Source of the DNA: Takakia lepidozioides
Taxonomy: Eukaryota; Plantae; Bryophyta
Length of the DNA stretch: 64,000 nt
Direction of reading: 5' to 3'
Assembly: GCA_030704615.1 (NCBI GenBank)
Contig: CM060734.1
Span: forward strand, 28,706,001 to 28,770,000
Numbering within the stretch: position 1 is the first letter of the stretch; every line of letters starts with the position of its first letter. Below are positions 5,837 through 51,700 of this stretch, piece after piece. Below the pieces are notes generated by a model. It saw only the letters and a program-made list of their open reading frames with translations. It was not told where the DNA came from and searched no databases. The position numbers and the translations under genes are program-made.

Positions 5837-7832
5837 CACTTTGGATTTCTCATAACAGAGCTTATCAAGCCTCCAGATTCCTCGTAAGAGGCAAAAACAA
5901 TGCAGAACAACTGAATGTCTGCATTGACATTCAGCAAAATGAGTGAGGAACTCACTTACCTCTATGGACATACAATTTACATACTCTGAGGACCTCTCAA
6001 CAACTCCGTATGTGATGTCGTCAACGCCATTCAAGACATTATCAATTCTAATCAGGGACAATATAATTGCACCCTTAGATCCTAACCAGTGGAATTCATA
6101 TACTCGCTTAAGAATGACTCAGACAAAGAAGTGAATGTCGTCAACGACATTCAATCTGGATCTAAGATTGCAATCCATATGAAACCACATTTTTTCCCAA
6201 AAAAAACAATAGAGTTTCAAGTATGACATTGCACATGTACACAACTCGCATCATGGCCCACTCTCCTCCAACCTGACTGTCAAAGTCGTTGGACCGTAAA
6301 ATGTTTCCCATCTTTGGAGAACTCCGGAAAAACAGTATCTCCAGGTGAGACCTCTCCACTTCCTTATGTATGCCTCCAATGACATTTGGGAGGGGAAACA
6401 ATCGAAATGTTCAGGTCCTTCAAAGTCTGATTCAGCACAATGACGGCGCGCTTTTCGAGCTGCAAATAGTATATTTGTCAGAATTGCAAATAAGATACTC
6501 ATCACATACTTGAAGAGAAGAAAACAGCATGTTTGAATACACACCTGACTCCAAAATGTAGCCTAACACCAAATCACTGATTCCTTCCACCTTTGTGCCA
6601 GGCTGTATGGTGCTCTTTGGAACTGATTCAAGTCCTTTACTGTTTGATCTGAGTTCCATAATCTCCAGCCACCTTATTTTTGTTTGTGGGTCGACCATCG
6701 ATATGGCCAGCCGGTGCAGTTCTCCTGCTGCATCTCAGGATGCACATGCTTGTCATAGTGTTTTGATCTGCCTGAAGGAACTCAGGACCAAGTCCAGGAT
6801 CTACTATTCTAAGCTGCTTTCCGAAGGCGGACATCAAATTCGGTTCTTCGCATTTCAAACTCCTTCTTTATTGCAGCTTCCACACCCTTTGATGTCCTTA
6901 GTTCTTCTTCTGGTGTAGTGCGGTAATATTCGGATTTTCCCTTCTCAGCTGCCTCTGCCAGTTCTTTTGCTGCATTGATTCAAGTAGTGATTAGCTGGCT
7001 ACAAACATGTATTCGAAAAGTAAACAGAGTACAGACTCGGCTTACCGCATACATGTACTCCAGAAACGCCTCTCGTGTCAAAGAATACCAAGTGCCTGCA
7101 GCTCTTCCTGTTTCGCACTTCTTGATGATATTGGGTGGTAGTACTGTCCGAAAATCATCCAGTTTCATCAGACCAATCCTCTGAATTCGGAATAGTGTGT
7201 GAACTAAGCTTGTTGTCACATGCGATTTCTCTGTCGATCTGCAAAAACATTGGAAACATTGCATTCCTTAACACTGTTTTTTGAGGATTAATAAGACACT
7301 ACAGACGGAATGAAATCTCCTGGATGACTTACTTGTTCACGTCGTGCATAGCTGTAAGAAGCCTAGCGATGTCGTTTCCAGGATCCAAAACCATTGCCTC
7401 CACAGCAACATGCTTGTTTTTGTCTTTCGAATGGTGTTTCTGAATGTATCCCATCCATGCCAGCAATCGGTGGTTGCCGTCCCAGACGTAGAACATGTGG
7501 TTGCAGAATTGTTGGGTGTTCTTTCCCATCATGAGGCCCAGCTCGAACTCCTCATTGGCATCTTTCCAGCACTCATCCCAGTTATCACTGATCTCTGGAG
7601 ACACTAATGTGCTTTTCCCATTTATATCCGTCAGTGACACATAAAAAACTTGTGCACCAAGTCTATATCCATGCACAAAATCACTCTCCAATTTTGTTAT
7701 ATCATGGGAAAGAGGTGGACGCACAACAGGCATTGATATCATCCAGCACAGAGGTATGTCCAGACGCCCTCCAGATACGAGCATGTCCCTTATAACCTCC
7801 TGAGAGTTTACCTTCTGGAATGACATGAGTTC
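5837..7832 (-). pseudogene. Fragment (copy alpha) of the ParB-like/methyltransferase gene of the Mutator-like element, including the ParB/Srx-like exon
   Basis: Near-identical to 46161-47384; ORF 7329-7838 contains FYVWDGNHRLLAW; retains ~790 bp of exons and introns (~6507-7295) that are deleted in the 46-47 kb copy. Confidence 0.85.
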
Positions 7833-8189
7833 TGTCAAGTTAAATAAGCACAGTGTGAAAACAGCTAGAATAAAACTAGTTATTTGTATTTAACACTTGG
7901 ATTTAGGTCAAGTGTTAAATCAGGTGTCAAGTTTAGTTTGACACCTGGTCCGTCTTATCTTCACGAGAGCGGCAGTCGCGCAGCTCATCTCTCTCGAGTT
8001 GAGCCTGCGCGACCGAGCTCCTTCATCGATTCAGATATGAGTGTGCTTATGATGGGAGTGTAGGTTGTTGTGGGGTGGAGTCCCCATAGCTTGGGGTGCC
8101 CCTGGCTCGACTTCTGTTTCAATGAGTGATAGTGATGGATTTCATATTTCTTGTGTTGGGAGTGTGTGTCCTTCTTAGCTTGTTTATCA
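7833..8189 (+). repeat. Terminal repeat A1 (paired with A2 at 19261-19620)
   Basis: First ~185 bp nearly identical to 19261 onward, 3' half patchily diverged; both end TTATCA; contains several hairpins. Confidence 0.92.
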
Positions 8190-8205
8190 CTCGAGAGAGA
8201 TGAGC
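8190..8205 (+). promoter_or_regulatory. Self-complementary primer-binding site (pairs with 7983-7998)
   Basis: CTCGAGAGAGATGAGC is the exact reverse complement of GCTCATCTCTCTCGAG inside A1; no TGG tRNA-type PBS. Confidence 0.8.
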
Positions 8206-8360
8206 GTTATCTAGTGTGCTGGTGCTAAGCTAGATACAATGTTTGTTTTTAGCACTATTATAATAATATTTTGGGGCAGGAGTCCATCTGGCCCTGCTGT
8301 TGCCATGGGCTGTGCGCGCAGATTTAGTTGTCGTCTTGCGCGTGAGTTTGAAAACCAAGA

Positions 8361-8785
<425 letters not shown>

Positions 8786-10020
8786 TAACCGAATTTGTGG
8801 CCGCTTGAGCAGGAAGTAGGGAATAATCAGGTGTACAAGTCATGTGGGGCCTCTCTGTTTCGAGAGAGACGTCTTCAAGATCAACACTCGCTTGTGAGGG
8901 AGCGGGAGCCAGCGCAAGGCAGGGGAGGTGAATCAATCCAGAGACGGCGTTCTCTGAGAGGTGAATGCCATCGGAGATACACTGTCCACAAACTGCATCC
9001 TGAAGAGATTGTCTGCCCAGAACGTAGCGGTAAATTGCGAGCTGGGTTGCAGTGTTAGGCAACTCGATGTCGGGGGCTGCTGCAGAGCGGCAGAGCGGCA
9101 GATGCACTCCAAAGTAGTGGTTTGCAGGAAGAGAAGTAGCAGCTCATGTGGTTTGAGGGTCAGGCCCGCAAGAAGACTTACAGTTATCTAGTTATAACGT
9201 TCTGAATCACATGTCCGTCTGCACCATGGGGAGTCCGGTCTCATTAAGGGGGCCAGCTTGAAGCGCAGGTCACTGGGCTGTGTGTGTGCCATCCATTACT
9301 TAGGTATGTGGGCCTCAGGAACAAACAGCAGGGTGAAGCGTGGCGATTTCTCATGCTCCCCTTTCCATCGCGTCCCGGCCTCAGCCCACAACGGTGGTGG
9401 TGAGAGCTGTGGCAGCTAGTGCGGAAGTACAGAAGAAAGTGGGAAAGTTTGGATGGTGACATAGACTACCTTACCAGGTCTACGAGACTTGTCCAGTGGT
9501 ATCTGGGCACATTGCCAAAGCGGAAAGATCAATCAAGGAGCTATAAGATCAAAGCCTTGCGGATGTTGGGGTGCCGTGCTGGCTTGTGTCGCTAGCAAGA
9601 AAGCCCTGGTGTTTATGCTGGGAGGCGAATACACCCTGATACAGTGTCTGCCACAGGCACTTGAGAGTGAGCGTGCATCCCTTAGAGAACCCCCAGAACT
9701 TCCAGAATGGTCAAACTGATGGTGAGAGTCCATAACCACGCCATCTGCAGATGCTCGTGATACATCACCTGTCTCTACTCATCTGCTCCTTGAGTTCCTC
9801 TGTCACCTCCATGACAGCTAAAACAGGATCTCTAATCACCTACATTGAAGAGGCTGAGTTGACAGTCCGTGCCGGATCTATCCCTTGGCTGGTTAAAGAT
9901 GTTCAAGCCTCCAAGGGCACTATGAAATCTCACTGCGAGGTCCTGTGGGGGGAGGGGAACGGCCTCGGGAACCGTAGATAACCTGGGAACAGGTTGTACC
10001 GGCGAGAACGTTTTGGTGTT

Positions 10021-10068
10021 AAAAAAAAAATTAAAAAAAAAAAAAAGAAAAAAAAAAAAAAAAAAAAA
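10021..10068 (+). repeat. Poly(A)-like tract within the retrotransposon 5' region
   Basis: ~48 nt almost pure A. Confidence 0.9.
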
Positions 10069-11327
10069 TGTTTATGTTTAAAGAGCCTGGTTGGTCATAT
10101 CTTTGTCAAATGGACTCTGTTTGACCCAGTTTTTGAGGGGATAGCTGCAGAAAGGGGAAATCTACCAATCTAGACCTGGTTTTGTTTTTGGGACTCTGCT
10201 AAAAATCTATGGAATTTTTAGAGTGTGAGTGTGCCATGAAAGATCCACAATTCTGTTTCTAGAACCTGTGCTGGTCTATATGAGAGACAAATTGGTGGAT
10301 GTACTCCTTGCATGGCTGGGGGAAATGAGGACGTAATTGAAGGGCAGGTCTCTTCTCTTAGTCTGTGCACACAAGGGGACAGGATTTATGTTTCCCAAGG
10401 AACTCAGACTGATTTGAGTGGAGAACAGTTGGACGAGTTGATTGCATACTGGGAGTCAGGCATAGCAGCAGTAGACAACAGACTGCTGTAGTTGGCATTG
10501 AGGGCCTCAATATCGCCTTGGACAGTCAGAACTCTGTTGGAGCCAGCAGTTCTGCAGCTGTAGGTGAAATACCAAAGTGGGTGAAAGCTAGGCTTGGAAC
10601 ACAGCCAAAGACAGCCCGGGGACCAAGGTGTTCAGCCACAAGGCCGTGGTGTACTGGAGCAGAGGAGCAGGAGCTACACAGTTTGTGCAATCAGACATGG
10701 TTGCAGCCGGATACGCTCTGCACAGGGCAACCACGAGCGGGGGTTCATCAGCAATGACATGTTTGTTGTGTGTGAAGGAGATGCAGTCATTCGCAATGAG
10801 GACACCCGCAACCGTCTCAAAGCTTTCGAGTTGAGAGACTATCAGACCCTACCTTTGTTTTCTTTAGTGTTCAGTGAGCGGGAGATAGGGAGTATTGCTT
10901 TGTCTCTACCTGGCAGAAAGAGGAGGAGGGTTGGTTAGAGCGAGCTACTGTAGCTTGGGACAAGGTTAGTGGCAGGTTTCTGGACATAGATATACCTCCT
11001 ACACCTTACCATCATGCAGAGCGAGGCACTTTGAGAGAAGTCTGGCAGTTGATAGCATAGATCAGGATTAGATCTTGCTTGGTCGGGCTTCTATTCTTCC
11101 CTCCATCTCTGTACTATTTTCATTACCTTGTACTTGTAGTTGCCAAAGCCTCTCTTGGTGGAGGCCAGTCAGTCCGGGGTTTTGGGCTGGGCTATTCTGC
11201 AGGATCAGCATTGCAGCTGGATTTTGGTGTGGGGGTGTTGATGTTTTGATTTCTTGTGTTTGGATCCCCCCCAACACCTGCATGCTTGACTGTGCGCCAT
11301 GTTGTTTTGTGTGGGCGCTTGCTTTCA

Positions 11328-11577: not shown

Positions 11578-14500
11578 GTGGAGGAGGTGCACATTGTGAG
11601 TGTCATTACGGAGTTACCCAAGGGTTTTGAGGGGAGTACGGCTACAGGCAGTAACAGTGAGAGTGGGTTCACAAGACGAGGTATTCGGTTCAGACCACCT
11701 TCACCGCCACCCTCAATTACTGTAGAGTCAGACACAGACTCGGAGGCTTCATCAACAGGTGTGCACTTTCATTCGCCATTGTTGTGGGACGACATGGAGG
11801 AGATGTATGGAGCTACCAAGGGGCCTCGTAGGTACTCTGGAGCTGTGGGCACAATCGAGTTGGATGACTTTATCCAGGAGTTCGACAGCTGGTGTGATTT
11901 GCAGCAGATGCGCAATCCACAGCTATTCACCCCATTCATGGCGTGGAAGGGACTGTTCCAGCATTTGGAAGGCCCGCCTATGGACGATTACCACGAGTTC
12001 AGGCGAGGACATGAAGCAGAGATTGAGGAGTGGAGGATGTATTGGTCACCTGACTACGTCTCCATTACTCGAGGCACGACGCGACCAGTAGCTGCATCAG
12101 TACCAATAGCTCCCACTGCCAGCACTAGTAGTGGAGCAAGTAGTGCTGGTACTTCTGCAGGTGGTACCAGTTCAAAAGGTGCTACTACTCCTCCTGCCAC
12201 GACTACAACACATGTGCCTAGATTCAACCCGGTGGTGGAGTTCTTCCAGGAGTTGCGGAGGAACTACCAAGGTGTACGGACAGAGAAGCTGCGAAGTTTG
12301 CAAGACTTCCAGCGCAAACCCAGTGAGAGCCTGCGAGAGGCGTACACTCGTATGAGGCGCTTGATAAGTGTGACCCAAGGGGTTACTGAAGCTCAGGCAA
12401 TCCAGTTTTGGTATGGAATTCTGGACAAGGAGCTCAAGAGAAGGGTGCGAGATGCAACCCTGTTACAAGCAGCCCAACCCACATTAGCAGATGTGTTTCT
12501 GCTGGCTGAGCGGATTGAGCTCAACATGGTGGAGGAGCGAGTTGTTACAATTGGATTTGGCAAGGACATGCCTGCACGAGGGGCAGCTGCCAGCCCACAG
12601 GCACAAGGGACTGCCCAACAGCGTGGTCAGGGGGGCAAGGTTGCCCAGCCCAAGTTCCATGGAGCTTACAGGGGACCTCAGGTGCAGAGGCCCGTGGCAT
12701 CTTTTGCAGGCCAACAGCAACCAGGGGTGATATGTTGGACATGTGGAGGACCCCATGTCAAGAGAGATTGCCCAGAGAGTGGCAAAGGCCGGCACAAGCA
12801 CAGCCTGCACAGTTGCAGTGTGGGCATTGTGGCAAGTATGGGCATGGAGATGCCCAGTGTTATGACTTGCATCCTGAGTTGCGCCCAGGCCAGTTCCAAG
12901 GGAACAATGGTGGCCGGGGGCGAGGTGGACCAGCCCAAAGAGGACGAGGTGGTCGGGCACGAGGTGCAGGCCAAGGGCAAGCTCCACATGGCCAAGGACG
13001 CGGAGGTCAGGGTGTTGACCAAGGCATGGCCAATCGGCTTCAGCAGCTAGAGCAGAGGCTCGCTGCCATGGCTATAGCTCAGGCGGTACCGGCTCCCAGG
13101 CGGGATGGTCCACCTCCTGCTCCTGAGGGAGGAGATATGGGAGGCATGGGATTCATGTGCGGAGCAGCACTACCACTAGAGCAGGTGGAGTCTGCTGCAG
13201 CCGTGACTCGAGGAGCAGCACGAGTTCCTGAGCCACGAGGTGCAGAGGTGGAATTGGATCCACAGCGTGGGGAGGCAAGCCGTCAGGCAAGGCTTCCTCA
13301 GTCATTCACATTGGCGGAGACTGTGTCGACGCCATCCATGGCACCTAGTTCTCGCCCGACTGTTACCGAGGCGGAGGTTACTATGCCATTGGGGAGAGCT
13401 ACACGTGCAGCACTGACTCCTGCTGCCAAGGCTAGTGCGGCCGGTGTGTTATTGGGGGCAGCCACCTCTGTGTGTCAAGGCCCCACTGTTCTCGGCAACA
13501 ATGATTGCGACGCCGGGGGTGAGACCAGCTGCAGTGTTCAGACTAGCAGCAACACTCTGTGAGAGTGGGGAGGTCACTTCATCTTCTGCGGAGTTAGTGG
13601 AAGGTGTAGTGGCAGAGGGATCCTCGGATTTGAGGGTCAAGACTGCCACGGCTGCGCCATGGCAAGTTGCAGCTGCCAGGTTGACGGAGCTGCCAGCTAG
13701 GCCAGCCATTGAGCGCGCCATGGTGACACCTGGAGTTGTCTTGTTAGACAACCAGGGAGGCATTTTCACTTTGAGTGGACCGGCAGGCAAGAAGTACCGG
13801 CCACTGCGGGTCTTGTTGGACTCAGGAGCTCAGCCACTGATGTTGGGCAGAGCTGCTATTGCAGGTTTGGGCCTCATGGAGGCGGATATGGAGCCTTGTC
13901 CTTTCCAGATACAGACATCTCTGGGAGGATCAGAGCAGGCTCGCGGCATGACACGGCATCAGTTGGCTATTAGACTGCAGCCGGATCATCCTGTAGATGG
14001 CTCAGTGATGCGAGCCAAGGCCATTGTGACAGACGCGGTCTCTTACGATGTCCTCGTTGGTGGGGCAGTGTTATACCCCATGGGCTTCACCCTGGATTTC
14101 TGGGAGGAGTCAGCATCCTACAGGCCTGGATGGCAGTCAGGGGATGGTCGCCGTGCACAGCTCCCTGTGACATTCATTGGGGGTATTGCAGCTGCCCAGC
14201 GGGGCAAGATGCCAACACTAGCCGCCTTCACAGCTGCAGTTAGTTGGCCTGGAGAGTTGCTGGAAGGCAATGCCCATGCAGAGGATGTGCCACCTCCAGC
14301 AGAGCAGGATGACATGCATGGTACGGCGGAGTTGCCTGCCATGGTTGCTCACACTCCGTTGTGGGGTACGAGCAAGGATTTGCAGCAAGCTGCTGATGGA
14401 CGGGTGCAACAAGCTTGGGAAGAAGCTTTTGTACCGTCAGGAGAGGAGGAGAGTGCGGTGATTGCACCAGGGCCACCTCAGTTGTCGCCATTGGACACCA

Positions 14501-15779
14501 CACCTCTTGTGTGGCAGCGGCCGGATGAAGGCATTTGCCTTCTGGACTTGTTTGGCGGGATCAGCACCGGATTGGCTGCTGTGCTACAGGCAGGTGTGCG
14601 GGTAAGGCGTTACCTGTATGTGGAGAGGGATGAGACTGCACGACGCGTCTCACTGCGCCATGTGGCTCAGTTGGTACAGCAGTACCCTGACTTGTTGCCT
14701 GTGTCTGCAGTTCGTGGATACCAACAAGCCTTGCCAGCAGACATTTCCTTGTTGGGGGCGCAAGATTTGGAGCAGGTTGGCTCCATTGATCTGATAGTGG
14801 CAGGTTGCCCTGCCAAGGGCATTCATCAGCCGGGCATGGCAATGGATTGCGAGACTCGAGGACGGGTCTGTTTTGGGAGATGGTGCGGATTTTGCGCTGC
14901 TTGCAGCTTCATCAAGCTGTATCTCCAGCATACATCTTGGAGAATGTACCACTGATGGGTGATTCTCGGGCCAGGGTGATGGCCAGTGTGCATCAAGTCC
15001 GGTCGTGGCTTGGGTCAGCAGTGTTGCTGGATGCAGCTGCAGTGGGGTCACGGGCTCATCGTCCACGACTATGGTGGACTAACTTGATGCCACCCGCACT
15101 GCTCAAGCGTGCATTTGATGGGGTGCAGCGGCCAGCACACCTCACCGTGGATGGCATTTTGGACACAGGAAGGCAGTCTCAACGTGTGAGACACGATGAC
15201 CGTTCGCCTTTGGCAGTGGTCAACAGGGTGGGTCAACCACGAGCAGCATTACCTACACTGCTCAGCTTCCCAGGATCCCATGCTTTTCGGGATGGTGGAC
15301 CTGGCCTCCTGTGGGATGCTCAGTTGCAGCAGTTAGTGGAGCCTAATGCCGACGAGCGAGAGCGGGCTATGGGGTTTTCCACTGGGACCACGGCGGTGCC
15401 TTCTCTTTCTGAGGCATCACGTCGTCAGGTGTTGGGGCAAGCAATGGATCTCAATTGCTTGACCTGGATTGTCAGCTTGGCTATGGCTGAGCAACGTAGA
15501 GTGCGGAGTGCACTTCCCTTGACGGTCTCTCTGCCTACCGAGACGGTACAGGCAGCGAGTGGGGGCGAGCCGGTGAGGACCACGAGGTGTAGACATCCAT
15601 GGCACATGTGGGAGGTGCTCGAGGTTCAGAGGGAGTTGGCAGCGAAGGCAGCTGTGATGGATGAGGTTGGGGATTCTTCTCGGGATGAGGAGGTTCTCAA
15701 TGATGAGATGATGGGGCAGGATGAGGCCTTGTCATTGACTGAGCAGGAAGGGGGTACTGCTCAAGAGGTTGCAGCATAG
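11578..15779 (+). pseudogene. gag-protease-C5 DNA methyltransferase (DNMT3-like) polyprotein, with three single-base frameshifts (~12790, ~13478, ~14806)
   Basis: CWTCGGPHVKRDC and CGHCGKYGHGDAQC knuckles; LLDSGAQ; DNMT motifs LDLFGGI (I), G(W)PCQG (IV), ILENV (VI), AHRPRLWWTN (VIII), ERERAMGF (IX), RRQVLGQAM (X) at ~14533-15490. Confidence 0.92.
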
Positions 15780-18700
15780 CAACCACGGGACGCGTCCTCT
15801 ACCTCTAAGCCCACTGGACTTAAGGTTGCAGTTACGGAGGACAATTGGGAGCCTGACATTGGACCCATTGTCACCGGAGGAGAGAGACGACGTATACGGC
15901 GGTTCCTGAGGGCTTATAGGAATTGCTTTGCCTTCAGTTTGAAGGACTTGGGAGCACTGAAGGGTCAAGAGATCCGTATTGAGTTGGCCACTGACACGCC
16001 AATCTTTCGGAGACCCTATAGATACAGTGACATGGAGAGGTCTTTGATTCAGATGAGGACTCAAGATCTCTGGGAGGCAGGTTTGGTGGAGCTCTCTGGT
16101 GGAGAGTATGCTTCAGCCACAGTGATGCCAGCTAAGAAGGATGTCTATGGCAATTGGACGGAGAGACGTATGTGCGGTGATTACCGGCCTGTAAATCGTC
16201 AGACCAAGTCCGATAGGTATGCCATGCCAACACCAGAGGAGATCTTTGATGCCATTGGGCATTCCAAGGTCTTTAGCACGTTGGATTTACGATCCGGATA
16301 TCACCAGTTGCCGATCAAGGAGGCGGATAAGCAAAAGACGGCATTCTGGGGGATCAATGAGCACGGGAAGGATTGCCTATACCAGTGGCGGTTCTTACCA
16401 TTTGGGCTTAAAAACGCTCCCGCTGAGTTTCAAAGAGTCATGGACAGGATTCTAGCAGGGGTGGAGTTTGCTCGGTGCTACATAGATGACATCATCATCT
16501 TTAGTGCTACGGTGGAGGAGCATGAGAGACACCTTCAGGGGGTATTTGAGCGCTTGAGGACGCACGGATTGAAGTTACATCCGGGCAAGTGCAAGTTTTT
16601 CCACAACCAGATTGAGTATCTGGGTCACATGATATATCCTGGAGGATTGGGGGTACAGCAGACTAAGGTAGAGTCCATTGCACAGGTTCCACGCCCCACG
16701 GATGTGAGCCGAGTTCGAGCTTTCATGGGGTTAGCAAACTATTACAGACGGTTTGTTAAGGGATTTAGTGCCATTGCAAAGGCTCTAACCAAGCTGACCA
16801 AGGTGGACCAGGAGTGGCAGTGGGAAGATGAGCAAGAACAAGCTTTTCAAGAGCTCAAGGCGAGGTTGACCTCGGCGCCCATCTTGAGACGACCTATCAG
16901 GGGGCGTCCTTTTCAGCTGCATACAGATTGGAGCATGCTGGGGCTTGGAGCGGTGCTCACACAGGTGGATGATGAGGGAAGAGAGTTCGTAGTGGCTTAT
17001 GCTAGCCGCTCGAACAATGCTGCAGAGTCTAAGTATAGCTCATATGAGGGAGAATGCTTAGCTGCAGTGTGGGCCGTGGCACACTTCAGGTGCTATCTAT
17101 ACGGCAATCTCTTCACCCTTGTCACGGATCACCAACCACTCAAGTGGTTGATGGAGTCAGACAAGCTTACGGGGAAGCTTGCACGGTGGGCACTCATCCT
17201 TCAAGAGTATGACTTTCAGGTGGTGCATCGACCGGGTTTGGTCAATCGAAATGCAGATGGGTTGAGTCGCAATCCATGCACGAGCCAGCAGGATGACACT
17301 GGAGCTCGGTGGCATGGTGAGACGGACGAGGAGATGGTGCCCGGATGGCATGCATCTGCATTTCTGTGTATCTTGGCAGCGGAAGGCCAGGTTGGACCTA
17401 CAACAGGGATGACTGTAGATCAAGTGTCTGAGGACCCTGAGGCCAGCAATGAGCAGGGTGGCGCCAAAGATATACATGAGGATTCAGTTGTGTTGGACTA
17501 CCTCCGCAGTGGAGACACGGCAGCCACTATGACTGCCAAGGAGAGGGATCGGATCCTACAACGAGCCAAGAGGTTCAGGTGGGAGGGGACACACCTGCTC
17601 CGAGTGTGGGAGGATGGTCGAGTGAGGATTGTGCCTCACCCAACACAGCGGGCACGGTTAGTGCGGCATGCCCATGAGGAGTTGGGGCATTTTGGGGTGC
17701 GACGCACTCATAGTCTACTGAAGGGGCAGTATTGGTGGCGTGGTATGCACACAGAGGTGCAACAATTTGTGGCTAGGTGCATGGTGTGTGACAGGGTGCG
17801 TGCTTCATTCAACGCCCCTACTCCACAATTGCACCCTCTTCCGATCATGGGATTGGGCTACAGGTGGAGTCTTGACTTCGCAGGGCCGTTGCCACTGACC
17901 ATGCGCCACAACAAGTACGTGTTGGTGATGGTGGAGCACTTCTCCAAGTGGATTGAATTGGTTCCATTGCCTGATAAGGCTAGTGAGGGAGCTGCGTATG
18001 CATTCCTGGATTGTGTGCTTAGCCGATTCGGTGCTCCAGCTGAGGTACTCACGGACCAAGGGAGAGAGTTCTTGGGGGAGTTTCAGGCTTTGTGTGACAA
18101 GGCCTTGATAGACCACCGCACCACTTCCGGGATCATCCTGAAGCCGATGGCTTGGCAGAGAGAGTTGTTCAGACAGTAAAGAGGGGTTTGCGCAAGTATG
18201 GCTTGCAGAAGGGACACCTAGGAGATTGGGACCTTCAGTTACCCTGGTTAGCCATGGGCTACAGGTTCAGCAAGCAAGCATCACTTGCCTCCTTCTCACC
18301 ATACTTTCTTCTCTTTGGCCGAGAGCCGGATTTGCCTACATCCATTCGCAGAGAAGCTGCTACAGTTCTTAACCTTGACGATCCGGACGTGTGGGCACGT
18401 GCATGTGAGCAGCGTGCAGAGTTGTTCAAGAGAGTCATGCCCATGGCTTTCGAGAACCTTGCCATTGCACAACACCGTGATACGTTGAGGTATGCTACCA
18501 TACGTGGTGGGGGCTATCGTCCTGGGGTTCGGAGATTCAACCCTGGTGACTATGTCTATCTGCAGCAGACTGCTCCTACGACCCTGGATGTGACTGCAGG
18601 ACGTGTTATTTTGAGGGTTCGAGAGGTCTTGCCCTCAGGCGTCTTGGTCTTGGAGGGTCGGGATGGCATAACTTGGAAGGACCATGTGCGTAATTGTGCG

Positions 18701-18913
18701 CCATGTCACCTTCCGAATGTCGATGGCAGGATTGACCCAAACCTGGCAGTGGTATCTGCAGGTTTGAGGTGCATGTTGTGTGGGTCTGCTAAAGGGGCAG
18801 CCACCATGCTGGTGTGTGATCGATGCTCTAGAGGTTGGCATATGGGGTGCTTGACTCCACCTCTTGAGATGGTTCCAGATGGGGATTGGTTATGTCCACA
18901 ATGCATTGGATAG
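15780..18913 (+). pseudogene. RT - RNase H - integrase - PHD finger, in frame after the TAG at 15777-15779; one frameshift at ~18125
   Basis: [30 protein letters not shown]..CxxC zinc-binding domain, LDFAGP/TDQG/AER catalytic triad, C4HC3 PHD CMLC..CDRC..HMGC..WLCPQC. Confidence 0.93.
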
Positions 18914-19173
18914 TGGGAGTGGATACAACCATGGGAGGCTAACAAGCAACGCAAGGTCCAGCTACTAGGAGACCTTGAACACACGAGGTCCTGGCTCAAG
19001 TTCACAGATTGCAAGATGGCGACTAACGATGGGGCTACTCTTGTACCCGGCCTCTTGGTCTATAGAGTTTGAGTACAATAGGGACAGTGATAGAGGACTT
19101 AGTACGGCTGTGGCTATTACATCTTGTAGCTATCTGGAGGTAGAGGGACCTATCCACCAGCTAGGGAGGCGAT

Positions 19174-19706
19174 TGTGGCAGACTACTTTATTGTGCATAT
19201 ATGTGTGGTGTGGTTTGGACAGCGATGTAGTTGTGTAGCGATATGTATGCGCACGACAGCTGTCAAGTTAAATAAGCACAGTGTGAAAACAGCTAGAATA
19301 AAACTAGTTATTTGTATTTAACACTTGGATTTAGGTCAAGTGTTAAATCAGGTGTCAAGTTTAGTTTGACACCTGGTCCGTCTTATCTTCACGAGAGCGG
19401 CAGTCGCGCGGCTCATCTTTCTCGAGTTGAGCCTGCGCGACCGAGCTCCTGTGTGCGTTTAGATCTGAGTGTACTCATGATGGGAGTGTAGGTTGTTGTG
19501 GGGTGGAGTCCCCATAGCTTGGGGTGCCCCTGGCTCGACTACTGTTTTAAAGAGTGATGGTTTTGGATTTCACATTGTTTCTTGTGTGGAGAGCAGTGTC
19601 ATTTGTTAGCTTTCTTATCATTGTGGCAGACTACTTTATTGTGCATATATGTGTGGTGTGGTTTGGACAGCGATGTAGTTGTGTAGCGATATGTATGCGC
19701 ACGACA
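19174..19706 (+). repeat. B1 (19174-19258) - GC - A2 (19261-19620) - T - B2 (19622-19706) terminal repeat block, preceded by a PPT-like tract (AGGGAGG, ~19163-19169)
   Basis: B1 and B2 are identical 85-bp repeats; A2 matches A1; the B1/A2 joint is the palindrome GACAGCTGTC. Confidence 0.93.
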
Positions 19707-35621: not shown

Positions 35622-38600
35622 TGTCATGGTTTTAGTCATGGTTAACTAGAATTACCTACTTCTAGTTAACTAGGACATTTTAGATATTTATATTTATATT
35701 TAGTGTGTTGGGACTTCATATGCCAAGTGAGGTATCAAGCCTCACTTGGGACATGGGGATGGGTTTTCCCCTTGTGAGGGTTGAGGAGGGCTCATCTTCT
35801 TGTAGTTGAGCCTCCATGAGCCTCTCCCACCTCCATAGCTCTAGGTATTGAGAGAGTGTGTGGTGAGGGCTTTGTAGGGTGGATTCCTTTAGCAAAGGTA
35901 CCCTTGGCTTGACTTAGTTTATGTGATTGAGTGGATTCATGAGTGGAGGGATTCCATTGTGCACTTTTCATTATCACTACAAGAAGATGACCTTATGCTT
36001 GTGAGTGCGGAGTGTAAGGATTAGTTTAACACTTGTGTTGGTGTACACCAAGGAGTGAGAGAGCTAGGAAAAGCTCAAGTATCTCACAAGGCTTGCAAGG
36101 TGTTGCAAGGGAGAGTGTGTTTGCATTGCATCAAGGAGGTGGAGAGCTCTTGAGTTACAAGACTTTGCAAGTATTGCAAGGAGAAAGTCTTGTGTGTGGG
36201 GAAGCAAAAGGTTTGAAAGTTTGAGAAGAAAGAGCGTCATCTCTTGTATCTCAAATGTTGTGACCATCATTTGTCAATGAAGTGGCTTCTATGGTGAAAA
36301 GAATGCATTGAGGGTTTGTAGAAGCATTATTGTGTACCAAGGGTTTAAGAGCTTGGAAAAGAGCTCTTGCATCACAAGAGAAGCGTCTTGTGTGTGGAGA
36401 AGATAGACACTAGGGTTTCAAGAGGAAGCTCTAGTTGTTCATGGTGTGAAAGAGAAGCCAAAGAGCGGCACCTGCTTGGGTTGGAAACACCATAGAAGGA
36501 GTACAACAAAGGTAACTTGAGGAGCATAGAGTAGCTCAAGAGAAGCTAAGAAGTGGTTGTTTATCCATGGTGAAATGAAGCCAAGTGGGGTTTCATTTGG
36601 TTGACAAACAAGCAAGTTAAGGCGCTAGAAGGGAGTGCTTTTGCTAGTTCTATGAGTTCTTGGATTGCTCTTGGTGAAACAAGTGGTTGACCAAGCAAGT
36701 GCCACATGTGTGGAGCATGCTTTCCAAGTGCGGCTTCCAACTTTAAGCTTGAGGAGAGCTAGAAGGTGAAGGGAACAAGTTCATTCCTTTGTGTATGAGG
36801 TGATGCTTATGTGGAGCATGTTTTCAGCCCATTGAGGCTTCTATTTTCAAACCTTGGAGAGCAAGAAGGAAGGAAAATGGCTGGTTTCCACTTAGGTGAA
36901 GGAAAAGCACTTGTAGAGCATATGTTTGAGTTGGGGTTTCAACCTTAAGCTTGAGGAGAGCACGACTCTTGAGGTAGCAAGTGAAGGGACTTGAATCTTC
37001 CTCTTTGCATGAGATGGAGATGTATTGATGCTTGGAGAAGCAACACATAGAAGCCAAGAGTAGAGCATGTGTGTGGATGGCCAAAGAAGAACACATGAAT
37101 GAGTGCAAGACTTGGTTGCTTGTCAAATGAGGTAAAAAGCTTGATTCTTGAGCTCCAAAGAGAAGTGAAGCTTGTTGTGTGGCAAATGCATTGCTAGGTG
37201 AGATGGAACCAAGCTTGGTTGTGGCTTGAGGTGAAGAAGATCAAGGTAGTTTGCCTCAGTATCTCATAGAAGTCATGGATGCTTGAGGAGAGCAAGCATG
37301 AAGCTCAAGAAAGCCCAAACCCTAGCTTGGAATGCACAAACCCTAGCATGAGATGCACGTGAAACCCCATGTTCATGGGAACGGTCACTATAGTATAGGA
37401 ACAATAATTATAGGTTAGGAACCGTCACTATAGGTTGGGAACAGTAACTATAGGTTGAGAACTGTCACTATAGATTGGGAACAGTAACTATAGTATAGGA
37501 ACAGTAACTATCCGATAGGAACGGTCAGTGTAGGCTGGGAACATAGTGACATATAAAGACAATATATGGCTTTTGGAGGATTTTCAAGGGCATTTGGAGG
37601 ATTGTTTGGGGGATCTTTGGGGTCCTTTGAGGAGCTTTTGGAAAACACTTTGAGGAGCTTTTGTAAGCCACTTTGAAGAGCTCTTGAAGAGGTATCTGGA
37701 TGACTGTTTGGAGGACTATTTGCGGTCCTTGAAGGCCAAGTTTTGGCAAGTTTTTGGAGCCTTTGGAGGGCTATGTGGAGGACCATTTGGGGTCTTTGAA
37801 GGCCAATATTTGGCAAGTTTTTGGAGCCTTTGGAAGGCTGTTTGGAGGGCTATTTGGGGTCCTTGGAGGCCGATATTTGGCGAGCTTGAGGAGTCTTTGG
37901 CGACTTGTTGAAGGACTATTTGGGATCCTTGAGGGCCAAGATTTGGCAGGCTCTTGGGGCCTTGGTGTACTGTTTGGAGTACCATTGTCCAAGCTTTGGG
38001 AGCCTTAGTGAGATTGTTTGAGTAACATCTTGAGGGCTCTTAGAGAGTTATTTGAGAGATCCTTGAAAGGTCTTGTCTATTGTTTAAGCAAGAGAGTGTG
38101 GAGATAGGGTAGTGGGATGAGAGCATGTTGTGATAGGAATTGCTTTAGTCTCTCTTCCTTGTAGTCTTCCACCCTCTCTGTAGGCCAAAACCTTTCCGTA
38201 AGTGGAGGCAAGAGTAAGTCCGGGTTTGGGCTGGGGTGTCGTGCAGGAGCGACACTGTGAAGTGTTTTTGGTGTGGGGGAGTTACTGTTTTGACTTGTGT
38301 TTGAATCCCCTCCACACCTGCATGCTTGACTGTGTGCCATGTCAGTTTTGTGTGGGCGCTTGTTTTCATAGGAGGTTGGTCCGGATTTGATCACCGGCCA
38401 ATCCTAGAGCGTGGTGTCGGTGGTGAGGCTAGGGTGATGACCAGTCAGACCATCATTGTTTTCTTATGGTGAGGTTGGGTTGATGACCAACAGACCATAG
38501 GAGTGTTTGCGGTGGATGCAGGTGCAGGTGCAGGTCTATGTTATGAACCTAGTAGAGCAAGCCATTAGCTGCAACAGGTTCTCTACCCGGTTACCTTGTG

Positions 38601-41600
38601 GAAAGGGGGATTAGAGACAGGTTTGTACAACTGGTGAGGTTGTGAGTTTTCATCATGGAGGTGCCACTAGTTGCTGAGGGAAGTGCCGATACGAGCACTA
38701 GCGATACTAGTGGATACATGAGACGAGGTGTGCGGTTTAGGCCACCTTCACCTTCTGTGTCTTCTGAGGATGGTTCTGGTTCAGACTCTGAGAGATCCAC
38801 GCCGCAGGTGCAAGCTATTTCCTTGCCATTGTTGTGGGACACGATGGAGAAAATGTATGGAGCTACCAAGGGGCCACGTCGGTACTGTGGAGCTGTGGGC
38901 ACCATCAAGCTTGATGATTTCATACAGGAGTTTGATAGTTGGTGTGATTTGCAGCAGATGCGCAATCCACAACTGTTTATGCCTTTTATGGCTTGGAAGG
39001 GGCTGTTTCAGCACCTTGAGGGGCCGCCAATGGGCGATTACCATGAGTTTAGGCGGGGACATGAGGTGGAGATTGAGGAATGGCGGGAGTATTGGTCACC
39101 TGACTATATCTCCATCACCAAAGGCACAAGAGCAGCGGCGACACCAGCAGCTACACCAACATCCCCAACTGCAAGCACTAGTAGTGGGACAAGTGGTACA
39201 TGAGCTGGGAAATCCACTCAAGTTTCTGTTGCATCACCAGCATCCGTGCCTGTCTTTAACCCAGTTGTGGAGTTCTTCGAGGAGTTGAGGAGAAACTACC
39301 AGGGGATAAGGACAGAGAAGTTGCGCACAGAGCTTGCAAGAGTTCCAACGGAGGCCTACTGAGAGTTTGAGGGAGGCTTACACGTGCATGAGACGCTTGA
39401 TAAATGTAGCCCAAGGGGTTACGGAAGCTCAGGCAGTCCAATTCTGGTATGGGATATTGGACAAGGAGTTGAGGAGAAGGGTGCGGGATGCAACTCTCAT
39501 ACAAGTGGCCCAACCCACCCTAGCAAATGTATTTTTGCTAACAGAGCGGATAGAGCTCAACATGATGGAGGAGCGAGTGGTTATGGTGGGGTTTGGCAAG
39601 GAGACACAAAGAAGTGGGGTTCCTAGCCAACAACAATAAACCCCCCAACGTGCTCAAGGCAACAAGGGGGCTCAGACGAAGCCCAGGGAAGGTCAGAGGG
39701 GATCTCAGATGCAAAGGTCTCTTCCTTCATTCTCAGGCCAACAACAGACGAGTGTGTCATGTTGGGATTATGGATGACCATATGTGAAGAAGGATTGCCC
39801 AGAGAGAGGCAAAGGGTCGGCACCTGCAAACCTACACAATTACAATGTGGGAATTGTGGCAAGTATGGGCATGAGGAGGCCCATTGTTATGATTTGCATC
39901 TTGAGCTCCGGCCAGGCCAGTTCCAAGGGAACAATGGTGGCCGAGGACGAGGCAACGTAGTCCAGAGAGGTAGAGGAGGCAGAGGTCGTGGTGGAGGTCG
40001 TAACCAAAACCAAGGAGCACATGGCTAAGGTCAAGGTCATGACCAAGCTAACATGGTGGATAGGCTTGCCCAACTAGAGCAACGTCTTGCTGCCATGGCC
40101 ACTACTCATAATGCGCGAGCTCCAAGGCCTGAGGTTCAAGCCCCACCTGCACAACCTCCTATGCCTAGGGAAGATCAAATTGGTATGGGCTTCATGTGTG
40201 GAGCCGCACTTGCAGGGCCATTGCATGTACTGGACTCTGCTGCTGCTGTCACTCGAGCAGCAACGCGTGCTCCTGAACCAAGAAGAGCGGATGTGGATTT
40301 TGATCCACAAAGGGGGGAAGCAAGTCGTCAGACAAGGCTTCCACAGTCATTTACATTGGATGAGACAGTGTCACCTATGCCATCAATGGCACCCGCTCGC
40401 CCAAGTGTGTCAGAGATAGAGCCACGAGTGTCATTGGGGAGAGTTGGTGTGGCTCGGGAAATACCAGTGGGTGGTGCTGCAAAGCAAGGTGTAGCCAGTA
40501 CATTGTTGGGGGCGGCTAGGGCGGTTTGCCAAGCTCCATTGTTTTCTGCAATGATCATTGCAATGCCGGGGATTCAGCCAGCTGTTGTGTTCAGACTAGC
40601 AGCTAGACTCTGTGAGAGTGGTGATGCATCGGCACTATCTGCGGGGATAGCAGATAAGGTACAGTCTATGGATGCCCTGGATTTGAGGGTGAAGTCAGCC
40701 ACAGCTGCGCCATGGCAAACGGCAGCTGCAAGGTTTTAGGAGTTGCCAGCTAGGCCAGCCATTGAGCGCAACATGGTGACTCCTGGGGTAGTCGTGGTGG
40801 ACAATCAGGATGCAGTGTCTCAATTGAGTGGCCCAGCTGGGAGGAAGTATAGGCCACTATGGGTTTTGTTGGACTCGGGAGCACAACCATTGATGTTGGG
40901 GAAAGCAGCAGTTGCAGGCTTGGGCCTTACAGAGGCGGATTTGGAGCCTTGCCCTTTTCAAATTCAGACATCTTTGGGTGGTTCAGAGAAGGTGCGGGGG
41001 ATTACACGCCATGAGCTCTACATTCGATTGCAGCCAGATCATCCTACGGATGGCTCAGTCACAAGAGCTAAAGCCATTGTTACGGACGCGATGTCCTATG
41101 ATGTGCTTGTTGGTGGGGCTGTGTTATACCCAATGGGATTTACTCTGGACTTTTCGGAGGAAACGACGTCCTATAGGCCGGAGTGGCAGTCAGGGGATGG
41201 CCGACGTGCACTACTCCTAGTGCGGTTTATTGGGAATGTAGCGGTGGATCATAGGAACATGATGCCAACATTGGCTGCATTCTTAGGTGTGGTGGCTTGG
41301 AGGTGGTGAGCTCTTGGAGGGCAATAGCCATGCAGATGATAGACCACCACCTGATGGGGACGAGCAATTGGCATACAAGGCTGAGTTGCTTCATCATGTT
41401 CCTGTGCATAGCTCACTGTGGGGTACAGTTGGGGATTTGTAGCGAGTGGCAAGCCAGTGTGTGCAACAAGCATGACATGAGGCATTTCCATCGGTAGGTG
41501 AGGGGAGTTTAGTGACATCACCTGGACCTCCTCAGTTAGCTCCATTGGACACAGTGTCTATTATCTGGTAACCACCTGATTCAGGCATTTGTTTGTTGGA

Positions 41601-42720
41601 CCTGTTTGGAGGCATAAACACTGGGCTTGCAGGAGTGTTGCAAGCAGGAATCAAAGTACGCAAGTACTTGTATGTGGAGAAGGATGAGATTGCTCGGCGT
41701 GTTTCCATGCGCCATGTTGCCTACGTATCAGTATCCTGAGTTGTTGTCTCTCTCAGCAATTCAAGGGTACCAAAATGCCTTGCCAGCAGACATTACCATG
41801 ATGGGGGCGGAGGATTTGGATCGGCATGGTCCCATTGACTTGGTGATAGCAGGGTGGCCTTGCCAAGGACATTCTCTCGCAGGTCATGGTAATGGTTTGC
41901 ATGATGCATGATCGCATTTGTTTTGGGAGATGTTGCGAGTGTTGCATGACTTGCTGACGAGGCAAGTGCAACCTGTAGCCTATATCTTGGAGAATGTTCC
42001 TCTTATGGGGGATTCTCGGGCCAGGGTTATGGCCAGTGTGCATCAGGTGCGGTTGTGGATTGGATCGGCGGTGCTATTGGATGCAGCAGCGGTGGGATCA
42101 CGTGTGTATCGACCTCGATTGTGGTGGACCAATCTTGCACCACCATAGCTGCTCAAGAGAGCATACAATTCCATTCAATGGCCACCCAATCTCACGGTTG
42201 AGGGCATTTTGGACCAAGGGAGGCAACCGGGGTGCGACATGATGACCATCCACCTTTGGCGGTGGTCAATCAAGCGGGGCAGCCGTACGGCCTTGCCTAC
42301 GCTCATGAGCTTTCCCTCGTCTCATGCTTTTTGAGACAATGGTCCTGGGTTGATTTGGGATAGTGTGCTACAACAATTGGTGGAGCCCAATGGGGATGAG
42401 CGAGAGCGGGTAATGGGGTTTGTCACGGGCGCTACAGTTGTGCCAGCTTTGTCAGAGGCATCACGCCGACATGTGTTGGGTCAAGCAATGGATCTAAATT
42501 GCTTGACATGGGTCATTGGCTTGTGCATGACTGAGCAATGGAGATTGCAAGCAGTGGTGGCTACTTCGGCACTCCCATTGGATAGTGCATCTTCCCTGCC
42601 AACCGGGACGGTTGAGGCAGTGAGTAGGGGCGAGCACAGGATCGTGGCAGATGTGGGATGAGATGCGGAGAGAGAGAGAGAGTCATTGGATCTCTCAAGG
42701 AGCAATATGAGGAGTGGGGA
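35622..42720 (+). mobile_element. Diverged relative of the DNMT-Gypsy family, copy 3 (A repeat 35622-35976, gag-PR-DNMT pseudogene ~38655-42660), 3' part lost at a Mutator-like end
   Basis: Starts TGTCA; TTATCA plus self-complementary PBS; MEKMYGATKGPRRY, LLDSGAQ, GWPCQG, ILENV, LGQAMDLN; many stops and frameshifts. Confidence 0.9.
37378..38060. repeat. Minisatellites in the 5' leader of copy 3: ~20-21 bp unit (GGAACAGTAACTATAG..) at ~37378-37545, then ~60-66 bp TTTGGAG-rich units
   Basis: Directly visible tandem units. Confidence 0.8.
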
Positions 42721-48743: not shown

Positions 48744-51700
48744 TGTGTCAACGCCATCCATGGCACCTAGTTCTCGCCCGACTGTTACCGAGGCGGAGGT
48801 TTCTATGCCATTGGGGAGAGCTACACGTGCAGCACTGACACCTGCTGCCAAGGCTAGTGCGGCCGGTGTGTTATTGGGGGCAGCCACCTCTGTGTGTCAG
48901 GCCCCACTGTTCTCGGCAACAATGATTGCGACGCCGGGGGTGAGACCAGCTGTAGTGTTCCGACTAGCAGCAACACTCTGTGAGAGTGGGGAGGTCACTT
49001 CATCTTCTGCGGAGTTAGTGGAAGGTGTAGTGGCAGAGGGATCCTCGGATTTGAGGGTCAAGACTGCCACGGCTGCGCCCTGGCAAGCTGCAGCTGTCAG
49101 GTTGACGGAGCTGCCGGCTAGGCCAGCCTTTGAGCGCGCCATGGTGACACCTGGAGTTGTCTTGTTAGACAACCAGGGAGACATTTTCACTTTGAGTGGA
49201 CCGGCAGGCAAGAAGTACCGGCCACTGCGGGTCTTGTTGGACTCGGGAGCTCAGCCACTGATGTTGGGCAGAGCTGCTATTGCAGGTTTGGGCCTCATGG
49301 AGGCGGATATGGAGCCTTGTCCTTTCCAGATACAGACATCTCTGGGAGGATCAGAGCAGGCTCGGGGCATGACACGGCATCAGTTGGCCATTAGACTGCA
49401 GCCGGATCATCCTATCGATGGCTCAGCAATGCGAGCCAAGGCCATTGTGACAGACGCAGTCTCTTACGATGTCCTCGTTGGTGGGGCAGTGTTATACCCC
49501 ATGGGCTTCACCCTGGATTTTTGGGAGGAGTCAGCATCCTACAGGCCTGGATGGCAGTCAGGCGATGGTCGCCGTGCACAGCTCCCTATGACATTCATTG
49601 GGGGTATAGCGGCTGCCTAGCGGGGCAAGATGCCAACACTAACCGCCTTTACAGCTGCAGTTAGTTGGCCTGGAGAGTTGTTGGAAGGCAATGCCCATGC
49701 AGAGGATGTGCCACCTCCAGCAGAGCAGGATGACATGCATGGTATGGTGGAGTTGCCTGCCATGGTTGCTCACACTCCATTGTGGGGTACGAGCAAGGAT
49801 TTGCAGCAGGCTGCTGATCAACGGGTGCAACAAGCCTGGGTAGAGGCTTTTGTTCCGTCAGGAGAGGAGGAGAGTGCGGGTATTGCACCAAGACCACCTC
49901 AGTTGTCACCATTGGATACCACACCTATTGTGTGGCAGTATCCAGATGAAGGCATTTGCCTTCTGGACTTGTTTGGCGGGGTCAGCACCGGATTGGCTGC
50001 TGTGCTACAGGCAGGTGTACGAGTTTGACGTTACCTGTATGTGGAGAGGGATGAGACTGCACGACACGTCTCACTGCGCCATGTTGCTCAGTTGGTACAG
50101 CAATACCCTGACTTGTTGCCAGTGTCTGCAGTTCGTGGATACCAACAAGCCTTGCCAGCAGACATTTCTTTGCTGGGGGCGCAGGATTTGGAGCAGGTTG
50201 GCTCCATTGAACTGGTAGTGGCAGGTTGGCCCTGCCAAGGGCATTCATCAGCCGGGCATGGCAATGGATTGCGAGACTCAAGGACGGGTCTGTTTTGGGA
50301 GATGGTGCGGATTTTGCGCTGCTTGCAGCTTCATCAAGCTATATCTCCAGCATACATCTTGGAGAATGTACCACTGATGGGTGATTCTCGGGCCAGGGTG
50401 ATGGCCAGTGTGCATCAAGTCCGGTCGTGGCTTGGGTCAGCAGTGTTGCTGGATGCAGCTGCAGTGGGGTCTTGAGCTCATCGTCCACGGCTTTGGTGGA
50501 CTAACTTGATGCCACCCGCACTACTCAAGCGTGCATTTGATGGGGTGCAGCGGCCAGCACACCTCACCGTGGATGGCATTTTGGACACAGGGAGACAGTC
50601 TCAACGTGTGAGACACGATGACCGTTCGCCTTTGGCAGTGGTCAACAGGGTGGGTCAACCACGAGCAGCATTACCTACACTGCTCAGCTTCCCAGGATCT
50701 CATGCTTTTCGGGATGGTGGACCTGGCCTCCTGTGGGATGCTCAGTTGCAGCAGTTAGTGGAGCCTAATGCCGACGAGCGAGAGCGGGCTATGGGATTTT
50801 CCACTGGGACCACGGCGGTGCCTTCTCTTTCTGAGGCATCACGGCGTCAGGTGTTGGGGCAAGCAATGGATCTCAATTGCTTGACTTGGATTATCAGCTT
50901 GGCTATGGCTGAGCAACGTAGAGTGCGGAGTGCACTCCCCTTCATGGTCTCTCTGCCTACCGAGACGGTACAGGCAGCGAGTGGGGGCGAGCCGGTGAGG
51001 ACCACGGGGTGTAGACATCCACGGCACACGTGGGAGGTGCTCGAGGTCCAAAGGGAGTTGGCAGCCAAGGTAGCTGTGATGGATGAGGTTGGGGATTTTT
51101 CTCGGGTTGAGGAGGTTCTCAATGATGAGATGATGGGGCAGGATGAGGCCTTGTCATTGACTGAGCAGGAAGGGGGTACTGCTCAAGAGGTTGCAGCATA
51201 GCAACCACGGGACGCGTCCTCTACCTCTAAGCCCACTGGACTTAAGGTTGCAGTTACGGAGGACAATTGGGAGCCTGACATTGGATCCATTGTCACCGGA
51301 GGAGAGAGACGACGTATACGGCGGTTCCTGAGGGCTTACAGGAATTGCTTTGCCTTCAGTTTGAAGGACTTGGGAGCACTGAAGGGTCAAGAGATCCGTA
51401 TTGAGTTGGCCACTGACACGCCAATCTTTCGGAGACCCTATAGATATAGTGACATGGAGAGGTCTTTGATTCAGATGAGGACTCAAGATCTCTGGGAGGC
51501 AGGTTTGGTGGAGCTCTCTGGTGGAGAGTATGCTTCAGCCACAGTGATGCCAGCTAAGAAGGATGTCTATGGCAATTGGACGGAGAGACGTATGTGCGGT
51601 GATTACCGGCCTGTAAATCGTCAGACCAAGTCCGATAGGTATGCCATGCCAACACCAGAGGAGATCTTTGATGCCATTGGGCATTCCAAGGTCTTTAGCA

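Follow-up and report, generated by a model that had tools for sequence, protein, structure and literature searches.

The window analysed here, a 64,000-nt stretch of the bryophyte Takakia lepidozioides (GCA_030704615.1, contig CM060734.1, positions 28,706,001 to 28,770,000, forward strand), contains a Ty3/Gypsy retrotransposon with a DNMT3-like C5 cytosine methyltransferase, present as broken copies. Self-BLAST delimited three related copies (Table 1; all coordinates are positions in the window), of which copy 3 is 97% and copy 2 is 71% identical to copy 1; copy 2 is the diverged copy that an earlier note, made from the letters alone, had recognised at 41.6-42.5 kb. Pfam searches gave the domain order gag, protease (PR), methyltransferase (DNMT), reverse transcriptase (RT), RNase H (RH), DDE integrase (IN) and PHD finger, with copies 1 and 3 both exceeding the cut-off of PF00145. 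The Ty3/Gypsy assignment follows the gag-PR-RT-RH-IN order with a DDE integrase, whose D,D(35)E is legible in the open reading frames (ORFs) 51202 and 53445 of copy 3, the TGTC...GACA termini, which are of the TG...CA type, and a predicted self-complementary primer site behind the 5′ repeat together with a purine tract before the 3′ repeat. No classical pair of like long terminal repeats (LTRs) flanks the coding region, the ends reading A...B-A-B or A...B.

The earlier note had placed the element at 13435..18913, whereas copy 1 extends from 7833 to 19706 and its ends are not ordinary LTRs. In each of the three copies, motifs I (DLFGG), IV (PCQG), VI (ENV), VIII (RPRLWWTNL), IX and X (GQAMD) of the methyltransferase follow one another unpermuted, as had been noted. 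A position between PR and RT, claimed for three copies, holds for copies 1 and 3, where RT, RH and IN lie 3′ of the methyltransferase; PR precedes it in copy 2 as well, which ends near 42,635 without an RT. All three copies are dead and none has the complete enzyme first described: the frame shifts immediately 5′ of motif IV in copy 1, one frameshift and several stops damage copy 2, and copy 3, although in a single frame, has two stops within the domain. A putative fourth DNMT fragment near 45.2 kb was a chance match.

In three DNA runs, which may include the window's own sample, contig depth over the coding region is about a thousand times that over the copy-specific 8.6-9.8 kb, a depth that does not equal copy number, and 31 contigs exit the B end into dissimilar flanks; judged by these contigs, the element is a large family in the source organism. 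The GTTC duplication at its 5′ end matches the one bordering copy 3 on the 3′ side, and the site stands empty at 47381; copy 1 is therefore either a chimera made from two insertions or part of a rearranged region. Around the elements, copies of a host segment recur with 95-98% identity (5832-7837, 46154-48727 and 54667-56013), one of them with an empty insertion site, which points to ectopic recombination, segmental duplication or an assembly chimera.

Table 1. Features of the element copies in the 64,000-nt window.
Feature	Position	Strand	Basis or remark
4-bp target duplication GTTC, 5′ half	7829..7832	+	3′ half at 54667-54670; empty site copy at 47381-47384
Repeat A1 (TGTC...TATCA), resembling U3-R-U5, at the 5′ end of copy 1	7833..8189	+	91% identity to A2, no difference in the first 148 nt
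Predicted self-primer and RNA 5′ end within A1	7983..7999	+	complementary to primer-binding site, 17/17 pairs
Predicted primer-binding site, adjoining A1	8189..8205	+	pairs with A1
Copy-1-specific stretch, probably a nested insertion, with a poly(A) run at its end	8270..10070 (limits approximate)	.	contig depth ~1000-fold below coding region, 3 DNA runs
gag, two CCHC knuckles; frameshifts in copy 1 near 12.8 and 13.5 kb	11794..13560	+	PF03732 weak
Aspartic protease (LLDSGAQ)	13735..14170	+	PF13650 weak in copy 2
C5 cytosine methyltransferase, DNMT3-like	14530..15500	+	profile, Pfam, predicted fold, motifs
Methyltransferase motifs, copy 1	I 14545, IV 14808, VI 14940, VIII 15060, IX 15354, X 15435	+	
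Conserved in-frame stop TAG, then CAACCA (CARYYA readthrough context)	15777..15785	+	kept in relatives
Reverse transcriptase (YIDD) and RNase H	15855..17280	+	PF00078, PF17917, PF17919
DDE integrase carrying an H2C2 zinc finger; frame shifts near 18.1 kb	17610..18730	+	PF17921, PF00665
PHD finger at C-terminus, and stop	18770..18913	+	PF00628, E 3e-11
Polypurine tract, immediately 5′ of B1	19163..19172	+	equivalent position in relatives
Repeat B1 (TTGTGG...CACGACA)	19173..19258	+	sequence comparison
B1/A2 junction palindrome, joining the element's end to its start across 2 nt; predicted integrase cut site	19255..19264	.	GACAGCTGTC
Repeat A2	19261..19620	+	sequence comparison
Repeat B2, 3′ end of copy 1	19621..19706	+	identical to B1
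Copy 2, diverged 5′ leader-gag-PR-DNMT, without RT	38179..42635	+	71% identity
Copy 3, 5′-truncated, PR-DNMT-stop(51199)-RT-RH-IN-PHD, single terminal B	48744..54666	+	97% to copy 1
Premature stops in copy 3	49618, 50026, 50473	+	sequence

Identity of the Methyltransferase and Selection on It

A profile built from 32 family members scored 88 bits with DNMT3A, 80 with DNMT3B, 40-50 with DRM and 36 with M.HhaI. The structure predicted for the copy 3 domain, with its stops read as X, had a pLDDT of 92.5, and all 33 structural matches listed were DNMT3A/B/C entries at about 20% identity, with TM scores of 0.66-0.71 to the catalytic domains. Profile and predicted fold thus support the initial assignment to a DNMT3-like enzyme and not to DRM, MET1 or a bacterial methyltransferase. 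With host DNMT3 (human DNMT3A/B; PpDNMT3b) the element enzyme shares the unpermuted motifs, the RxxWxNL of motif VIII and the fold, but it has the same low identity to these proteins, is without the PWWP and ADD domains or the plant N-terminal part, and has a longer target-recognition region, so that its specificity cannot be carried over from host DNMT3. PpDNMT3b is described, in the available part of PMC6453930, as a de novo CG and CHH methyltransferase.

The ratio of nonsynonymous to synonymous substitution rates (dN/dS) of the DNMT domain was 0.10 (confidence interval 0.04-0.24) for copy 3 versus copy 1, 0.15 (0.10-0.22) versus copy 2 and 0.09-0.11 versus five related loci, to which dS is near saturation, which tells against leaning on the last comparison. 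RT, RH and IN gave 0.05-0.11 and the linkers 0.47-1.47. The domain is therefore kept under purifying selection, and the view that it is a long-retained trait was borne out, the ratio between copies 1 and 3 not being near 1. The catalytic Cys, ENV and the S-adenosylmethionine-binding motif are conserved family-wide. Motif IV reads GWECQ in 90 relatives and GWPCQ in 119 (proteins P0037-P0375).

A Conserved Stop Codon between DNMT and RT

The methyltransferase had been taken to lie within one open polyprotein. In copies 1 and 3, the sequence TAG CAA CCA separates DNMT from RT in the same frame (TAG at 15777 and 51199), and this stop, conserved in relatives, closes a Gag-PR-DNMT ORF1. Among 59 loci in which the DNMT end is close to the RT start, TAG or TAA followed by CAA stands at one fixed in-frame place in 46, and TAR-CAR occurs within 135 nt in 50; a third subfamily carries TAA CAA TTA. 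The Marchantia proteins Mp4g09160 and Mp8g17980 are uninterrupted Gag-PR-DNMT frames that end at the corresponding place. Shared C-to-T decay as the source of the TAG was rejected, because the stop keeps its place in 46/59 loci and in subfamilies whose linkers cannot be aligned.

Tobacco mosaic virus and other plant viruses use CARYYA as their readthrough context (PMC4132726). As an in-frame stop of the readthrough type follows the DNMT, the enzyme likely travels with Gag and not with Pol; we infer that it would be made at the Gag level and the RT-integrase part at a few percent, which suggests that the enzyme is needed in bulk within the particle. Two features of the main related subfamily weigh against readthrough: it has CAACCC and not the full CARYYA, and an ATG lies two codons past its stop, where the window has CGG, so that reinitiation is possible.

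Range of the Family

Searches with the C-terminal part retrieved 60 longer relatives and 302 of similar length, the named ones coming from Calypogeia, Marchantia, Riccia and Sphagnum with main matches of 58-75%; two gag stretches are 76-78% identical to Marchantia P0003. A distant member used as the query added Closterium, Monoraphidium and Haematococcus. A profile search gave 607 clusters at E 1e-30 or better, with another retroelement domain in 96 of the 136 newly listed, and an atlas search matched PF00145 clusters only. The suspected kinship to the Klebsormidium element was supported by K. nitens GAQ93235.1, a gag-PR-DNMT protein that aligns with copy 3 over 322 aa at 38% identity (E 2e-61); identity to DNMT3A is about 20%, a difference that hints at a clade with the K. 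nitens enzymes apart from host DNMT3.

Domain order was examined in 80 metagenome loci and in 87 proteins of at least 900 aa, a set that includes some partial gene calls. Three layouts were seen among these proteins: gag-PR-DNMT and then the end (23 proteins), DNMT open into RT (Closterium P0197 and several others), and RT-RH-DNMT-IN-PHD (20 proteins, including Monoraphidium). The RT and the DNMT of the window each cluster with Marchantia and Sphagnum-like loci (SH-like approximate likelihood ratio test support of 99 and 100; 100/99 in a further tree), neighbours that point to a bryophyte-grade land plant as the source. Distances for RT and DNMT are correlated (r 0.70, 0/999 permutations). The further tree holds retroelement domains only and is unrooted, with an unresolved backbone. 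Given a range from chlorophytes to mosses and RT and DNMT trees that agree, a single ancient capture of the DNMT is favoured over a peculiarity of Klebsormidium. The 80 metagenome loci count for less than their number suggests, being mostly one subfamily and non-independent. Four loci (L059, L062, L064 and L074) hold a diverged subfamily in head-to-head inverted pieces, with DNMT-RT beside reversed PR-DNMT and RH-IN.

DNMT-bearing retrotransposons have reportedly been found before, in dinoflagellates and in the charophyte Klebsormidium. KnitGypsy-Dnmt3 of Klebsormidium nitens (de Mendoza et al. 2018, PMC5890265) shares with the window element, as far as the available text describes it, the Gypsy domain set, an unpermuted Dnmt3-related domain, a Ka/Ks under 0.2 and DIRS-like A-coding-B-A-B repeats. 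It is presented there as the outcome of a single acquisition "in the K. nitens lineage", whereas relatives of the window element span bryophytes, Closterium and chlorophytes; its DNMT lies in the ORF of RT, whereas the same frame is interrupted here by a conserved stop. Priming, target duplication, a junction palindrome and a PHD finger go unmentioned for it in that text ("PHD" has 0 occurrences). SymbioDIRS-Dnmt3 of Symbiodinium, described in the same text, likewise combines a retroelement Dnmt3 domain, which methylates CG de novo in yeast, with A-coding-B-A-B repeats, but it is a tyrosine-recombinase element, whereas the window element has a DDE integrase, a protease and 4-bp target duplications. 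From the parts of the respective sources available, REM1 of Chlamydomonas is a PHD-bearing LTR element (cited in PMC6673714), and a 2026 preprint and PMC12344493 write "streptophytes", citing the 2018 paper.

The statement that no land-plant family had been described stands in so far as no published description of a land-plant DNMT-Gypsy family was found in the literature, although Repbase, the Marchantia genome paper and supplements may hold bryophyte members; it falls short in that the family is far wider than three window copies and its kind is known from K. nitens. A Gag-linked stop, self-priming and internal-palindrome integration were not found for KnitGypsy-type elements in the literature searched. 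The kind of element is thus already known as KnitGypsy-Dnmt3, and what may be new, judged by the literature searched, is the bryophyte spread, the Gag-linked stop and, as predicted here, the self-priming and the internal-palindrome integration. The role of a retrotransposon-borne DNMT, a question that dates from 2018, was untestable in dinoflagellates and Klebsormidium; the full-length Gag-PR-DNMT frames of Marchantia polymorpha (Mp4g09160) make it addressable in a model plant with methylation mutants.

Predicted Self-Priming and Permutation of the Ends

The 17 nt 3′ of A1 pair at 17/17 positions with A1 positions 151-167, a match reached in 0/200 shuffles. In the loci L001 and L075 the 17/17 pairing is retained despite differences at 11/17 positions, at least 10 of the first 12 pairs are kept in 9/15 A1 copies, and relatives have a TATA-like box about 25-30 nt upstream. 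The pairing fails in 6/15 A1 copies, in 4 of them by deletion, which counts against self-priming. Deletions in A1 lie precisely over the predicted self-primer (positions ~145-185) in 4/15 copies (L013, L015, L019 and L051) and may be scars left when the primer was cleaved and the strand transferred. Priming by a tRNA was not seen, the sole tRNA gene of the window (Ser) lying outside the element.

In elements of the Tf1 type, the 5′ end of the RNA is complementary to a site behind the 5′ repeat, as in the window element. The self-primed Ty3/Gypsy elements surveyed by Neumann et al. 2019 in PMC6317226 (Tf1/sushi and the plant Tcn1 clade) likewise have no tRNA primer site, but they have ordinary LTRs and chromodomains and no methyltransferase, the available text of the survey having 0 mentions of "methyltransferase" and "PHD". 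As the primer site follows A and the purine tract precedes B, the cDNA would read B-A-coding-B-A. The true LTR would then be B+A, and we infer that the genomic forms are permutations of this cDNA, opened at the B/A palindrome.

Copy 1 is laid out as A1, coding region, purine tract, B1, GC, A2 and B2. Relatives with an unrelated A sequence share the plan: 7/16 informative 3′ ends read B-NN-A and 9/16 run from B directly into the flank, the exact GACAGCTGTC junction being present in 2 of the 16. Target duplications of 4 bp were found in 6/6 loci with both ends (5 distinct insertions), and the NCGN target preference, a Phygy trait, was absent among the 4 bases flanking 18 5′ ends. A CG beside the terminal GACA (CACGACA) is common to the window and to relatives whose A repeats otherwise differ. 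No element ORF of at least 100 aa matched a tyrosine recombinase, and the DIRS/PAT/Ngaro combination of a tyrosine recombinase with no protease and no DDE integrase is not that of this element. In the flank 3′ of B2 lies a short hairpin (19705-19724), AAGTCGTT GA AACGACTT.

At the circle junctions of IS3/IS30-type elements, a DDE enzyme cuts palindromic joined ends. Foamy virus two-LTR circles offer a similar case, in which integrase, a DDE enzyme too, cuts a palindromic end-to-end junction to give integration-ready ends, according to the available part of PMC1180852. The foamy virus palindrome is, however, the joint of the cDNA tips, whereas that of the window element is internal to the repeat and away from the primer-defined tips, so that the provirus would be permuted. 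Judged by its permuted ends, the element may integrate by a DDE route that differs from the one taken by ordinary LTR elements and retroviruses, and the same ends would make LTR finders miss such elements.

Simple random cutting of a two-LTR circle was rejected, 0/18 5′ ends having B upstream and a rough Fisher table of 7/17 v 0/16 giving p 0.007. Several observations speak against integrase cutting at the palindrome as the whole account of the ends. B was upstream of A at 0/18 5′ ends, though random cutting of the circle predicts A-B-A-coding-B equally often, and the cutting step therefore needs an unexplained left-palindrome bias or a DIRS-like route. The A-coding-B forms are possibly products of B1xB2 recombination or of assembly collapse. 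In favour of palindrome cutting with joined tips, the A2/B2 joint of L051 is irregular, with filler, and in run X2 an A end is fused to a tract remnant plus B; both joints look like end-joining. Separate inheritance of A1 and A2 was also considered and set aside, as relatives show no clear diagnostic columns and 3 weak ones.

A Model of Replication and of the Role of the Methyltransferase

On balance, we favour a reading in which this Gypsy element of the KnitGypsy-Dnmt3 lineage ends its Gag-PR frame with the DNMT3-like enzyme, which would be packaged in Gag-like amounts and methylate the element's own cDNA, RT-RH-IN being made by readthrough. Its observed basis is the order gag-PR-DNMT-stop-RT-RH-IN-PHD, the ends A-coding-B-A-B or A-coding-B, and the 4-bp target duplications. 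The RNA would begin within A1 and its 5′ end would pair behind A1, priming the minus strand without a tRNA, and the plus strand would start from the polypurine tract before B1, giving the linear B-A-coding-B-A cDNA. The DDE integrase would cut the internal GACA-NN-TGTC palindrome in circular or linear DNA instead of the cDNA tips: a one-LTR circle or a double cut would give A-coding-B, and a cut at the left palindrome with joined tips A-coding-B-A-B. In the weakest step, the methyltransferase may modify the double-stranded cDNA while still inside the particle, with CG as its most likely target; copies would then arrive pre-marked, and the PHD finger may guide integration by reading histone H3.

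At the codon junctions of copy 3, 37 CG were seen versus 109 expected (0.34), compared to ratios of 0.75-0.96 in 5/6 stretches of the chromovirus in the window, which served as a control; CHG was not depleted. This CG loss is weak support for CG marking of the cDNA. It is unspecific, as a stretch of a long interspersed nuclear element (LINE) and the chromovirus gag have likewise 0.34-0.37, and transitions between copies 1 and 3 (CG 6.0%, CHG 4.9%, CHH 1.9%) are as host silencing would give. The Klebsormidium enzyme was moreover inactive in yeast, a result that its authors call inconclusive in the available text of PMC5890265.

The absence of A-B-A-coding-B would be accounted for if the element replicated in the DIRS/PAT manner with Gypsy enzymes, its RNA running from inside A1 into B2, the ends being copied from A2/B1 and the new B2/A1 junction of the circle being cut by integrase. 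The authors of PMC5890265, in the text available, also liken the repeats to DIRS, and A1 and A2 of copy 1 are identical over the first 148 nt and divergent after. However, the primer site behind A1 and the purine tract before B1 fit an LTR of B+A, A1 and A2 of relatives do not group apart and their differences are spread evenly over the repeat, and copy 1 is a chimera by its flanks, which itself explains the mismatch of its A1 and A2; we regard this route as rather unlikely. The replication model could also be kept with the enzyme acting after integration, on the site or on host chromatin via the PHD finger, or marking the B/A junction so as to steer integrase. The PHD finger on the integrase, the shared CG beside GACA in relatives with unlike A repeats, and the DNMT between RNase H and integrase in chlorophyte-type relatives are consistent with such action, which nevertheless seems improbable to us, as placement before the stop means Gag abundance and exceeds the need of one integration event.

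The inactivity of the Klebsormidium enzyme in yeast and the GWECQ of many distant members would both suit a domain retained as a DNA- or RNA-binding or structural component of the particle that transfers few or no methyl groups. Against this stand the catalytic Cys, ENV and S-adenosylmethionine-binding motif kept across the family, a dN/dS of about 0.1 over the whole domain and the confident prediction of a DNMT3 fold, and we give a purely structural role very little credence. A wider form of the favoured model is a tentative proposal that may well be wrong: a Gypsy clade spanning the green plants, with many copies in model bryophytes, that has abandoned ordinary LTR ends, primes itself, cuts an in-repeat palindrome in the way some bacterial insertion sequences cut circle junctions, and makes DNMT3 at the Gag level to methylate its cDNA, which may set both the junction cut and silencing. 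If such a clade exists, many of the gene models annotated as "DNMT" in bryophytes would belong to transposons and might be a source of de novo methylation.

Other Features of the Window

The chromovirus-type Ty3/Gypsy element used as the control (79-5700, plus strand; gag, PR, RT, RH, IN, SH3 and chromodomain) is frameshifted. A MYST histone acetyltransferase gene at 24466-25524 on the plus strand (Tudor-knot, zf-MYST and MOZ/SAS) has a first exon that, at about 340 codons, is unusually long. A decayed LINE-like element (endonuclease and RT; 27046-29052, plus strand) is followed by the tRNA-Ser(TGA) gene on the minus strand (29308-29393). Tandem arrays of 20 bp and 67 bp and nested inverted repeats lie at 37376-37963 and 62409-63514. 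Three long overlapping ORFs occupy 56431-60082 on the plus strand, the last with a weak SWIM finger like that of Mutator-like elements, and a chromodomain ORF lies at 60861-61700 on the minus strand.

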